DNA of 21,730 nt from a bacterium (GCA_043803945.1 JAZDJN010000116.1:1-21730), one strand, 5' to 3'. Positions 19,145 to 21,730 are shown, counted from the first letter of the stretch. Translations and numbers: made by a program. Notes: generated by a model from the letters alone, not told the origin.

Positions 19145-20448
19145 TCAAAATGGCGCTATCCCCAGGAATCTAAACCAGGTGAGTCCTGCCAGAACGAATA
19201 AGAATACTCCTATTGTAGCGATGATAATGCCATACTTCAGGTTGTCAAGGACAGAATACTGGCCTGTCGTGAAGAGGATGACATTCGGTTTGGCACTGAT
19301 CGACAGTCCAACCACCCAATCGATAGTAAAAGCGGCGGGCAACGCCAGCGCCAATGGATTGATCCCCAATTCCTGGGCGAGGGCAATAGTAAAGGGAATC
19401 AAAATTATCGTTCGCATAGTCTTGGAGGTAAAAACGAGATGCGAATACATCATCACGGCGATAACGATAGTATACAGTACCCAGAAGTTGATGTCTTTTC
19501 CAATATTCAGCAGCACAAATAAATTCTGGATGACCCACTTTGCGGCACCGGTATCATTGAGTGCTAACCCGCCGGCATAGGCGCCCGCACTGAACAACAT
19601 CAAATGCCATGGAATATCGCATTCATTCCATTTGAGCAGGCCAACTTTGGGAAGCAGCGTGATGATGCCGCCAATCATAGCAGCCATCACCGGATCAATC
19701 TGAAAACCAAAGAGTTCAACATGAAATCGATCCGTCACCCATAAGATAACCACAATTCCAAAAATGACGGTACCTTTTTTTTCCAGGGAGCTCATCTTGC
19801 CCATGGCATCGAGCTGCTTTTTTAACGCTTCGATGCCGCCCTTTACTGCAGGCAGCTTTTCCTTCGTGCGGAGTTTGAACAAGAGCTTTGGACCAATAAT
19901 CCACGCAATCGCCATCGTAACAAGTACGACCGGTAAATTGGCAATCATCCAATCGGTATAATAGACTTTTGTTCCGGCCATGCTAAAGATGAAAGAGATC
20001 GCTATCAGATTAGCAGTGCTGCCTGTCATGAAACCGGATGAGAAGATATTAATGCCCAGAAGATTCTGGAGAAAGAGATTCTTGCCAAATCTGTTCGGAT
20101 TATCATTGGTCGATCCATAAATCGATGCCACGATAAGCATAATGGGAAGTGTAATCACTGTGCGTGCGGCGGTTGCCGGTATCATCGGAGCAAGCACTAA
20201 TTGCAAAATACGAAATGCCGCCATCATCAGCATGGCGCTGTGTCCAAATTTGACTATCAGGGTGAGTGCAATTCGCTTCGCTATCTTTGTCTTGACAAGC
20301 AGAGAACTCAGAATAAAAGCGAGCACATTCAACCAGATAACATCAAATTGTGCTTATCGAGATCTAACAAGTCATCCAGATTTTGGCCATTCACTTTACC
20401 CACCATGCCGTTTGCCGCAGCCGATCTGGCGTCTCTCGAGGCAGTCAT
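19145..20448 (-). pseudogene. DASS/SLC13 sodium:anion symporter, disrupted near the 5' end
   Basis: IPATAART, FMTGSTANLIA, IPWHLMLFSAG, ISAKPNVILF motifs over about 400 aa. The frame extends to FDVIWLNV near 20347 without a proper start or RBS. A short N-terminus from ATG 20448 (MTASRD...LDDLLDLDKH) is out of frame, and the first TM helices are missing. Confidence 0.75.
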
Positions 20449-20452
20449 GGAA

Positions 20453-20926
20453 TTATGACTTCTCCCACGTGGTGTAAGGATTCTTGATCAGATTGGAATT
20501 GAAATAGCGCGGATCGCCCGAGACTTCCCCGCCAACCCATGCCGGCAGATCGATCTTGACGTTCTCATCGCTCAATTCCACTTCTGCAACGACCAGCCCT
20601 TCGTTCACGCCATGGAATTCATCAATTTCCCATGTGAGGCCGGCGTGCTCGATTTTGGCTCGATACTTTTCGATAATCGGCTTCTCGCATAAATTATCCA
20701 GCATGATGTTGGCATCTTCCGCCGGAATTTCGTACTCGAATTCGCTCCGTGTAACACCAATGGTGATTCCCTTGATTGTCAGGAATCCCTTCTCGCTGAT
20801 CGTTCGTACACGAACCACCCGCTCCTTCACGGTGGAGAGATATCCCTGCCTGTAGTATTTTCCTTTGGCGAGTGATTTCCATTCATCGGACTTGATTAAA
20901 AATTTGCGTTCTATTTCTTTTCCCAT
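20453..20926 (-). CDS. CYTH/triphosphate tunnel metalloenzyme (157 aa, intact)
   Basis: True start ATG 20926 after TAAGGAG: MGKEIERKFL, RQGYL, VRVR, LTIKG, RSEFEYEIP, IEKYR, WEIDEF, GLVVAEVEL, EVSGDPRYFNSNL. Confidence 0.92.
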   Translation of the reverse strand: MGKEIERKFLIKSDEWKSLAKGKYYRQGYLSTVKERVVRVRTISEKGFLTIKGITIGVTRSEFEYEIPAEDANIMLDNLCEKPIIEKYRAKIEHAGLTWEIDEFHGVNEGLVVAEVELSDENVKIDLPAWVGGEVSGDPRYFNSNLIKNPYTTWEKS

Positions 20927-20937
20927 CGCAGCTCTCC

Positions 20938-21155
20938 TTATTTCATACCGACCAGGTTTTTTAATCCACTGCAGTGTTTTGATGTCCATGAGGTTATCGC
21001 GAACTTTGGTATTATCCATACTCACTTCAGAGAGGATATAGACTTCTGAGCTTTCCCCGGGTCTTTCCTTCAGGAAATTTCCTGATGTTTTCTTCAGCTT
21101 TTCCAAGATCATTTGTGAATGTGCGCCATTCCCAGCGTGGGATAATTTCTTGCAT
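20938..21155 (-). pseudogene. Divergent CYTH-like protein remnant (frameshift plus probable internal deletion)
   Basis: AGGAG RBS, then MQEIIPRWEWRTF...GKTR. One extra G in the run at 21055-21058 shifts to ESSEVYILS...NTKVRDNLMDIKTLQ. A short tail GLKNLVGMK-stop overlaps the next RBS. Far too short for a CYTH barrel. Confidence 0.6.
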
Positions 21156-21529
21156 AGGATCTCCTAGCCCAAGTTCGACAGTTGTGAAGAAAAGATGGCG
21201 ATTCTGTTGAGCATAGGGCATAAATGTTAAAAAGTCGGCACTACATTTTTGAGTTTCAATTCGAGCCGTTCAGGTGGTCTCAGGTCGAGTCTCTGAAGCA
21301 AGAGAGCTAAAGGTGGCTCCGGTTTTGAGATGCACCGGAGTCTAATGTCGATCTGTGTGCGCGTTAGAAGAACGACATCGATGAGCGTCAGGCTTTTAAT
21401 GTCTTCAAGAATAGTCCTCGGCTCGTTGCCCAAGCCTGATCGCTTACATATCTGGCCGAGACATTTCCATATCACATACGCAAGGAAGCACACCAGGATG
21501 TGAGCCTGCACACGATCCTCTCGTTGGTG

Positions 21530-21545
21530 TCCCGACAAGTCGGGA
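21530..21545. repeat. 16-nt palindromic micro-insertion TCCCGAC-AA-GTCGGGA in the transposase
   Basis: Perfect 7-bp IR located exactly at the frameshift between LKLR and HQREDR. Confidence 0.8.
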
Positions 21546-21642
21546 GACGAAGCTTCAAGTCCTGTTTGTGAATGCGGAAGGCTGCTTCCGCTTCTGTCAG
21601 TTGGATGTAGGCTTTCCAAAGATCCTCAGGCGTCCAGTCTTT

Positions 21643-21672
21643 TCAGCCAGAGGCTGATAAGCCTTTGGCTTA
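21643..21672. repeat. 30-nt double-hairpin micro-insertion TCAGCC-AGA-GGCTGA / TAAGCC-TTT-GGCTTA in the transposase
   Basis: Two adjacent 15-nt palindromes. Exact removal restores LLRTNIKDWTPE in frame. Confidence 0.88.
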
Positions 21673-21730
21673 GATGTTTGTGCGCAGGAGATAATATCCT
21701 TCAGTGAGACGGGCCCAGTCGCTGTACGTA

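Follow-up and report, generated by a model that had tools for sequence, protein, structure and literature searches.

Near the right-hand end of a bacterial contig of 21,730 nucleotides (nt), the 30 nt at positions 21643 to 21672, read on the minus strand, form two hairpins that abut one another. This contig (C116) is the window throughout what follows: the whole stretch of DNA that was analysed, from a genome (G000) of 118 contigs, 5.54 Mb and 46.5% G+C. The 30 nt have been inserted as one unit, exactly and without target duplication, between two codons of an IS1634-family transposase gene, and the family of sequences to which they belong shows physical linkage to genes for small GIY-YIG nucleases, which stand beside tRNA genes. 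What I propose is an insertion element of very small size, of which the 30 nt are a copy and which probably folds in single-stranded DNA and would be recognised in that form by a small GIY-YIG nuclease.

The two halves can be read directly. On the plus strand, positions 21643-21657 are TCAGCCAGAGGCTGA and positions 21658-21672 are TAAGCCTTTGGCTTA, two perfect palindromes side by side, each with a stem of 6 bp and a loop of 3 nt. What tells them apart is a set of paired changes at stem positions 2-3 and 13-14, CA/TG in the one and AA/TT in the other. An earlier note on this DNA had described just such a tandem pair of 15-nt palindromes with compensatory changes, and the sequence confirms it. 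On the coding (minus) strand the block, which I shall call the twin, is TAAGCCAAAGGCTTA-TCAGCCTCTGGCTGA, with TAA at its start and TGA at its end. Divided into stems and loops it becomes TAAGCC-AAA-GGCTTA followed by TCAGCC-TCT-GGCTGA; this is the orientation of the family, and the strict family pattern is matched.

As single-stranded DNA the minus strand is predicted to form two hairpins, at -9.2 kcal/mol and a z score of -3.35. According to the same kind of prediction, the plus strand of this copy could also fold as one long hairpin. The fold with two hairpins is nonetheless the conserved one, because in 74 of 121 distinct copies (all from other phyla, taken from among the matches listed in a wider scan described below) the two hairpins of one element carry different stems, which favours two hairpins over a single one of 30 nt. 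Nor is the twin a miniature inverted-repeat transposable element, there being no target duplication and no ends on the 30-nt unit like those of an insertion sequence (IS). The idea of an ultra-short, structured, mobile-looking unit that does not derive from its flanks has been supported.

The motif TMAGCCNNNGGCTKA, with at most one mismatch, is found three times in the window where 0.08 matches are expected, and none of 100 shuffled windows reaches three. Without mismatches it occurs 46 times in the 5.54-Mb genome, where the commonest of all 6-bp hairpin stems is TCAGCC with a 3-nt loop (42 copies). A whole twin, each of its two 15-nt units being allowed no more than one mismatch in the stem, stands at 15 sites in the genome. 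The motif is therefore anything but unique; it is common in this genome and in its relatives. A generic census of hairpins (stem of at least 6, loop of 3-8) places the genome only mildly above a shuffled version of itself, so the signal belongs to the family and is not part of a general excess of palindromes.

The features that matter most at this end of the window are these:

21643..21672, minus strand: 30-nt double-hairpin insertion element (from its sequence, the exact gap in C87, the minus-strand match to the family pattern and the two-hairpin fold).
21641..21674, minus strand: insertion site with flanks TC | AA (from the empty site in C87 and the flank counts of the family).
21673..21730, minus strand: open part of the IS1634-family transposase, last codons (...TYSDWARLTEGYYLLRTNI), from the overlap of C46 with the reverse complement of 21662-21730; the frame continues upstream on C46.
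21227..21642, minus strand: cut-off C-terminal coding part of the transposase, from reading frames and comparison with the intact 606-amino-acid (aa) paralog; it is frameshifted besides at 21530-21545.
21164..21730, minus strand: right-hand 567 nt of an IS1634-family IS (BLAST); the contig, and with it the window, ends within the IS.

The evidence for insertion comes from other copies of the same IS. A BLAST search with positions 21151-21730 of the window against the genome finds IS 3' ends on C85, C14, C79, C87, C58, C98, C64 and C72, with homology among them beginning at about position 21164 of the window; copies of the same IS end lie on nine contigs. The copy on C87 has an intact gene of 606 aa, 73% identical in DNA to the window copy over 575 aligned nt, and its membership of the IS1634 family is clear from a score of 337 bits against a cut-off of 100 for NF033559 (an NCBIfam equivalog). 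When the window copy is aligned with C85 (94% identical), with C46, the contig that holds the body of the IS, and with C87 (alignment A3), there is a single gap, exactly 30 columns wide, in C87, between ...CGCACAAACATC and AAAGACTGGACGCC... (RTNI|KDW). The flanks are identical around the gap and not one base is duplicated. C85 holds the same 30 bases as the window copy, and C46, which shares sequence with the window's end, breaks off within the element. Four contigs, then, span the site: three are filled, one of them only partly read, and one is empty.

The consequence for the gene is visible on C46, where the frame runs for 464 aa, ends in ...YYLLRTNI and is stopped by the first triplet of the element, TAA. 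Since the variant in the window opens with this in-frame stop, the transposase ends after residue 464 of about 600, losing its last 130-140 residues, the C-terminal catalytic region among them. The earlier note had read the site as a precise insertion between codons, beginning with TAA and ending with TGA, which knocks out the transposase, and the alignment of filled and empty IS1634 copies bears it out on each point: the site is TC|AA when empty, and the intact paralog lacks the ten extra codons.

Two other ways of looking at the 30 nt may be dealt with here. Translational bypass of the kind found in T4 gene 60 needs matching take-off and landing codons. The take-off codon at this site would be ATC and the block is followed by AAA GAC TGG; bypass was rejected because these do not match. 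The other is that there was no insertion at all, and that the difference is an artefact of assembly at the end of a contig or a deletion from the C87 paralog. The site does lie only 58 nt from the contig end, and C46 does break within the element, but it is hard to give this notion any credence when C116 and C85, which differ downstream, both read through the entire element, when the IS1634 frame is continuous only without the 30 nt, and when an exact difference of the same sort, 30 nt long, turns up in an IS91 gene against 11 homologs and in TsaD against solved structures (both discussed below).

In the 121 distinct copies the flanks prefer TY|RA, the bar marking the point of insertion:

position -2: T in 93 of 121 copies
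position -1: T or C in 102 of 121 copies
position +1: A or G in 101 of 121 copies
position +2: A in 96 of 121 copies

The empty site in C87 reads ...ACATC|AAAGA..., that is, it was TC|AA before anything entered it, and so the motif is, at least here, a feature of the target, not of the element. One might imagine instead that the flanks pair with each other and extend the structure. Among the 121 copies positions -1 and +1 do not covary, however, and complementary bases in the flanks form no longer runs than they do with shuffled partners, from which it follows that the flanks represent a sequence preference and not a stem. A T-shaped or three-way structure with paired flanks was accordingly dropped as a general feature. 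Some copies of the twin do lie at the tip of a longer hairpin.

What defines the family is best seen by lining up its members. The twins of this genome share an orientation, with a first loop rich in purines (AAA, GAA, GTA and so on) and a second that is mostly TCT, and in this orientation the minus strand of the window copy is the sense strand of the transposase. The consensus, which is oriented, can be written T-NN-GCC-RRA-GGC-NN-A + T-NN-GCC-TCT-GGC-NN-A: the ends are T...A, the tops of the stems GCC/GGC, the loops RRA and then TCT, and the lower stems are free in sequence and yet paired. A search for TNNGCCNNNGGCNNATNNGCCTCTGGCNNA finds the family 138 times in the related genomes, in 23 of the 41. 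The reversed pattern, used as a control, has no match in any of the 41.

A wider scan took one genome per prokaryotic species and yielded at least 120 loci (L031-L150); the counts given for it are counts among the matches listed. These come from Patescibacteria, Ignavibacteria, Chlorobi-type bacteria, Bacteroidota, Kiritimatiellae, Omnitrophota, Zixibacteria, Elusimicrobia, Chloroflexota, uncultured Gammaproteobacteria and others. The pattern leaves four positions of each hairpin free, and both stems are fully paired all the same in 149 of 165 matches, which amounts to strong covariation of the stems. A search of seven loci with twins or nuclease cassettes against Rfam (E<=1) returned tRNAs and chance matches, and no Rfam family covers the twin. 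The context of cyanobacterial HIP1 was ruled out as well, there being only 107 occurrences of GCGATCGC in 5.5 Mb.

The twin also appears as a part of larger repeats. On C57, C30, C59, C95, C98 and C87 it is part of a composite repeat that is a few hundred bases long; in some copies of that repeat a 24-nt module (CCTG + TCCGCC-N8-GGCGGA) is placed exactly between the two hairpins of the twin, and in others an 18-nt CCTGCC...GGCAGG palindrome is nested in turn in the loop of that module, making three levels of nesting. Tandem arrays with a period of 99 nt lie at contig ends (C102:55754-56084 and C60:19320-19786), each unit containing a TCAGCC hairpin, a TCCGCC one whose loop has 8 nt, and a palindrome of the GGGCCC type. 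A related genome, G006, has 36 near-identical twins, TGGGCCGAAGGCCCA TCAGCCTCTGGCTGA. The four whose flanks were read (L008, L030, L186 and L187) all form the tip of an inverted repeat that is longer (CCTGAAC...GTTTCAGG), and L187 has two units, spaced about 149 nt, in each of which the composite comes after a ATTCCGAATCGAGTTCGGAAT hairpin. The G006 composite looks like a recently amplified element.

A second exact insertion lies elsewhere in the genome. The twin at C65:25937-25966, TAAGCCAAAGGCTTA TGAGCCCCCGGCTCA, is inside a transposase gene of the IS91 family (C65:25318-26517, 400 aa, with PF04986 and PF14319). It splits a CGT codon and adds ten residues, LSQRLMSPRL, and the frame stays open. 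This gene has no paralogs in the genome, and homologs from outside were used for comparison: in all 11 that were aligned (65-89% identity, mostly of 390 aa) the ten residues are gapped exactly.

With two transposase genes hit in one genome, IS1634 (truncated) and IS91 (in frame), it is natural to ask whether transposons are what the element is for. The earlier note had suggested that it might preferentially strike mobile DNA and might form part of an anti-transposon, or parasite-of-parasite, system. The first part stands in so far as the flanks are repeated in the genome at 10 of the 15 twin sites, compared with 49 of 600 random positions, and a second transposase is indeed among the targets. 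The second part, that the element is or serves a system that inactivates insertion sequences, finds no support, and I regard it as very improbable. The IS91 copy keeps its frame open. The copies on C116 and C85 are one shared event, the counts therefore not being independent; several of the sites belong to one composite repeat that carries the twin along; and many lie near contig ends, where repeats accumulate. In other phyla, moreover, the element is found in housekeeping genes and between genes. The excess in repeats is explained more simply by persistence than by defence: insertions are likelier to persist in DNA that is dispensable.

Those housekeeping genes deserve attention. At 21 of the 120 loci listed from other phyla, the reading frame stays open for 70 aa or more to either side of the element. 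Fifteen of these were submitted to Pfam; ten belong to known families and five have no match. The element is thus carried in frame by a class II aminoacyl-tRNA synthetase (AspRS), by TsaD, by the beta and beta' subunits of RNA polymerase and by the C-terminal domain of GyrA, and further by an S41 peptidase, a DEAD-box helicase, HsdR, a PMT glycosyltransferase and a protein with a methyltransferase-like fold. Set against solved TsaD, the gap is exactly the ten residues that the element encodes. In RpoB, set likewise against a solved structure, 7 columns are gapped at the element and 8 residues stay unaligned, and in AspRS the region of the element aligns through a variable stretch.

In 17 of the 21 genes the element begins between codons, and what it encodes is usually SA-x-GGSASGG. 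The TCC variant, common in other phyla, is free of stops in every frame. The TAA, TGA and TCA stems, common in this genome, carry stops, which accounts for the truncation of the host gene by the window copy.

The strand of the element in these 21 genes is sense in 15, antisense in 3 and undecidable in 3. A bias of this sort is what one might expect if the element spread by way of RNA, through transcription, folding and reverse copying, a route reportedly proposed by Elhai and colleagues in 2008 for the small dispersed repeats of cyanobacteria. Both transposase copies in this genome are sense as well, and the nuclease cassettes to be described next are in tRNA transcription units. The bias could also arise from selection on the peptide or from insertion into a displaced strand of DNA, however. 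No link to a reverse transcriptase came up, in the course of work that included no systematic search for one, and the twin matches no Rfam family. An RNA intermediate seems to me a distant prospect.

Which enzyme, then, might act on the twin? Hairpin repeats of small size are known to be tied to RAYT genes, as set out in the parts of Bertels and Rainey (2011, PMC3116915) drawn on here, and the earlier note had thought of spread by something like HUH or RAYT. This genome has 12 matches to Y1_Tnp, the domain of such HUH transposases, and one twin, on C65, lies about 1 kb from one of them. But that twin, the only one near a Y1 gene, is upstream of it inside the neighbouring IS91 gene, and within 1.2 kb of the 12 Y1 loci of the genome no twin flanks a Y1 transposase gene; what is there is other palindromes, or none. 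The three RAYT loci examined in relatives (in G006, G030 and G025) tell the same story, being flanked by different palindromes and never by the twin, and the RAYT of G006 is single and unflanked by it in spite of 36 twin matches in that genome. That the twin should be a REP-like repeat moved by RAYT is thus not borne out, and I consider it quite unlikely.

A different gene does adjoin the twin, and does so repeatedly. The earlier note had advised looking for a nuclease or transposase gene flanked by the motif, and in the related genomes there is one: a gene of 84-88 aa with the GIY-YIG domain PF01541. An 88-aa gene on G021:C23 has a twin on both sides. So does the gene on G034:C248, where two units of 383 nt, each consisting of gene and twin, stand in tandem. 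On G025:C1 one flank of the gene is a full twin and the other a perfect hairpin with an imperfect partner, and on G008:C157 and G013:C263 a twin lies within 30 nt of a small GIY-YIG gene. Seven of the 138 twin matches are within 300 nt of such a gene, where about 0.2 would be expected by chance (a hand estimate, from about 170 gene matches in about 130 Mb). In the other phyla, a profile search found a GIY-YIG gene within 300 nt of the twin at 8 of the 120 loci listed.

These cassettes abut genes for tRNA-Ser, tRNA-Thr, tRNA-Gly and tRNA-Pro. At two loci (L177:642-973 and L179:657-966) the last 20 nt or so of the nuclease gene are shared with the 5' end of the tRNA gene (Ser and Pro, respectively), and on C99 of this genome a 19-nt piece from the 5' end of tRNA-Pro is repeated beyond the nuclease gene, as if a cassette had entered the tRNA gene. 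The solved proteins nearest to the twin-linked nucleases are UPF0213 (1ywl, 1zg2) and SLX1. The twin-linked nucleases are also homologous to a GIY-YIG protein encoded on C112 of this genome (hhalign probability 95.5%, 28% identity).

At C112:9000-9860 a 105-aa GIY-YIG gene lies between alternating hairpins of which one kind, gtcATTCCCACGCAAGTGGGAATccagag, is nearly the NTS consensus of Neisseria as given in the sections of PMC11893778 used here. It is a classical Ssn-type locus. Small GIY-YIG genes also occur in long tandem series, 14 of them about 299 nt apart at G016:C2:365024-369130 and 7 about 305 nt apart at G004:C9:1492190-1494262, in genomes with no strict match to the twin.

I propose the following sequence of events. 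The element would fold while its DNA is single-stranded, and the fold would be recognised by a small single-domain GIY-YIG nuclease, resembling UPF0213 and SLX1 and related to the Ssn single-strand DNases, whose home would be a cassette of the gene and twin hairpins beside tRNA genes. The nuclease may cut at the borders of the element and at TY|RA sites. Joining or copying by the host would then move the 30-nt unit or copy it, in a cut-and-paste or a copying manner. Insertion into a displaced strand could account for the bias towards the sense strand; so could selection that acts on the peptide.

Several observations weigh against this proposal. A GIY-YIG gene is absent within 300 nt at 112 of the 120 loci listed. 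The presence of both partners in a genome is uninformative, with GIY-YIG genes in 36 of the 41 relatives and the strict twin in 23, and two genomes, G010 and G031, have twins and no GIY-YIG match at E<=1e-8. An intact nuclease cassette with canonical twins was not found in the genome of the window itself; the closest homolog there (the end of C103 / C22:42-203) stops after about 54 residues, and beside a more distant GIY-YIG gene, on C51, there are only tandem copies of a variant twin whose loop has 7 nt. Twins do not keep one orientation with respect to the nuclease gene. The published SRM search pattern HGTCWY..RNCYNB is matched on neither strand of positions 21401-21730 of the window, and 50 times genome-wide. 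Finally, GIY-YIG enzymes hydrolyse DNA and none is known to rejoin it, so joining by some other means must be assumed.

It is this last point that keeps a nuclease-independent explanation in play as a serious rival. Templated repair, which the earlier note had named next to RAYT, also keeps some probability. Suppose that there is no dedicated enzyme and that a polymerase, in the course of replication or repair, changes over to another twin as its template and then returns, guided by microhomology in TY/RAA, the 2-3 nt common to nearly all copies on each side, with the result that the 30-nt unit is copied into new TY|RA sites. Then it is no surprise that the conserved flanks are already there at the empty site, as copying guided by microhomology needs, nor that there is no target duplication, nor that most copies have no nuclease gene nearby. 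The halves of the hairpin pair do seem to be re-assorted, TAAGCCAAAGGCTTA being joined to three different second hairpins within the genome, and hairpin modules are nested in the composite repeat. But 2-3 nt of homology is very little to direct two precise switches, and template switching explains neither the repeated presence of twins on both sides of small GIY-YIG genes nor the conservation of the loops across phyla. I give it a real though minor chance, and continue to favour a folded element recognised by the nuclease.

How does the twin compare with what is already known? The closest precedent is the set of NTS/SRM hairpin repeats, beside which small single-domain GIY-YIG nucleases called Ssn cut single-stranded DNA; these repeats flank the genes of their own nucleases and are rarely inside genes, 2% of them (Chenal et al., Nat Commun 2025, PMC11893778, in the sections on which this comparison draws). 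The likeness is considerable. In both cases there are short, dispersed, oriented hairpin repeats, in many copies and many phyla, that flank a small GIY-YIG gene and often do so on both sides. There are three differences. NTS/SRM is one hairpin with a conserved 5' flank containing GTC, whereas the twin is two abutting hairpins and does not match the SRM pattern. The nucleases linked to the twin have only 28% identity with the NTS-type protein of C112 and, among the structures in the PDB, come nearer to UPF0213/SLX1, Pfam giving only PF01541 for them. Lastly, the twin is seen in exact pairs of filled and empty site and in frame within essential genes, neither of which is shown in those sections of PMC11893778.

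The REP and REPIN sequences that depend on RAYT are like the twin in being very small, non-autonomous, hairpin-forming and able to multiply, and in that both are thought to depend on a single enzyme gene flanked by the repeat (again as far as the parts of PMC3116915 used here go). They differ in that the RAYT genes here are not flanked by the twin, in that the twin is 30 nt of tandem hairpins and not an inverted doublet of REPs, and in that its copies lie inside genes.

Three further comparisons can be made. The palindromic elements that Ogata and colleagues reportedly described in 2000, of roughly 100-150 bp and confined to Rickettsia, would resemble the twin as palindromic selfish DNA that is found in frame in coding genes, essential ones included, and is translated. 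They are longer and belong to one genus; the twin has 30 nt, occurs in many phyla and has a nuclease cassette. The mitochondrial double-hairpin elements of Allomyces and other fungi, reportedly 26-79 bp long and described by Paquin, Laforest and Lang in 2000, are short and rich in G+C, with two adjacent hairpins, and their mobility too was reportedly judged from filled and empty sites, also within genes. They differ in being organellar, of other sequence and of variable length, with no known nuclease partner; the comparison is by description. The cyanobacterial small dispersed repeats of Elhai and colleagues (2008), 21-27 nt, were reportedly proposed as the smallest mobile elements. They share structure, compensatory changes and nested insertions with the twin, and differ in sequence and hosts and in having no reported link to a nuclease.

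The twin family itself is apparently undescribed. An exact 15-mer from it has no match in the literature searched, and no paper on the family was found. From 2024 onwards the literature on GIY-YIG and hairpin repeats gave only Chenal et al., taken without its supplements, which may list further types of repeat, and among the papers listed on palindromic in-frame insertions in Patescibacteria there was nothing relevant.

If the proposal is true, the known pairs of hairpin repeat and small nuclease, REP-RAYT and NTS-Ssn, extend to a unit of 30 nt with a double hairpin. Movement of this unit is readable directly from exact filled and empty sites, something not shown for Ssn repeats in the sections of PMC11893778 consulted. 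What the window contributes is the filled and empty pair of IS copies in one genome, the absence of target duplication and the target motif in the empty site. Variants that bear stops can silence genes, in this instance a transposase. Annotation is affected too, since the element makes false pseudogenes, ten-residue loops of the SAxGGSASGG type in conserved proteins, and contig breaks. A nuclease specific for folded DNA of 30 nt, if that is what this one is, would be a possible reagent, as PMC11893778, in the parts used here, argues for Ssn.

A bolder claim can be entertained, tentatively: that this is the smallest class of DNA insertion element that appears autonomous, 30 nt or ten codons, perhaps moved as folded single-stranded DNA by an SLX1-like GIY-YIG nuclease of about 85 residues with its home beside tRNA genes, crossing phyla, and either harmless as a Ser/Gly loop, even in essential genes (the TCC variant), or lethal to its host gene (TAA/TGA, as in this transposase). 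I hold that to be possible and a good deal less secure than the proposal made above. Were it true, the nuclease would be a new kind of DNA-moving enzyme, one that does without any covalent intermediate, and the element would be a programmable tool, of natural origin, for inserting ten codons.

There remains a second lesion in the same transposase gene, and two genes that lie near it in the window:

21530..21545, no strand assigned: second lesion, 16-nt perfect palindrome TCCCGAC-AA-GTCGGGA (alignment A3).
20453-21112, minus strand: protein with a CYTH domain (PF01928).
19145-20332, minus strand: frame of 395 aa.

The 16-nt palindrome replaces 8 nt of the other copies (CAATCTGG or CTATCTGG, codons P-I-W), and the net gain of 8 nt shifts the frame. 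It folds weakly (z -0.96). The stem TCCCGAY/RTCGGGA occurs 27 times in the genome; three of the copies are 16-nt palindromes with TT at the centre, and some of the rest form hairpins that surround a GIY-YIG gene on C101. The palindrome may be the remnant of a second family of mini-hairpins, 8 nt having been replaced, which is not a plain insertion. As for the 395-aa frame, it looks, from its sequence, like a multi-pass membrane transporter.

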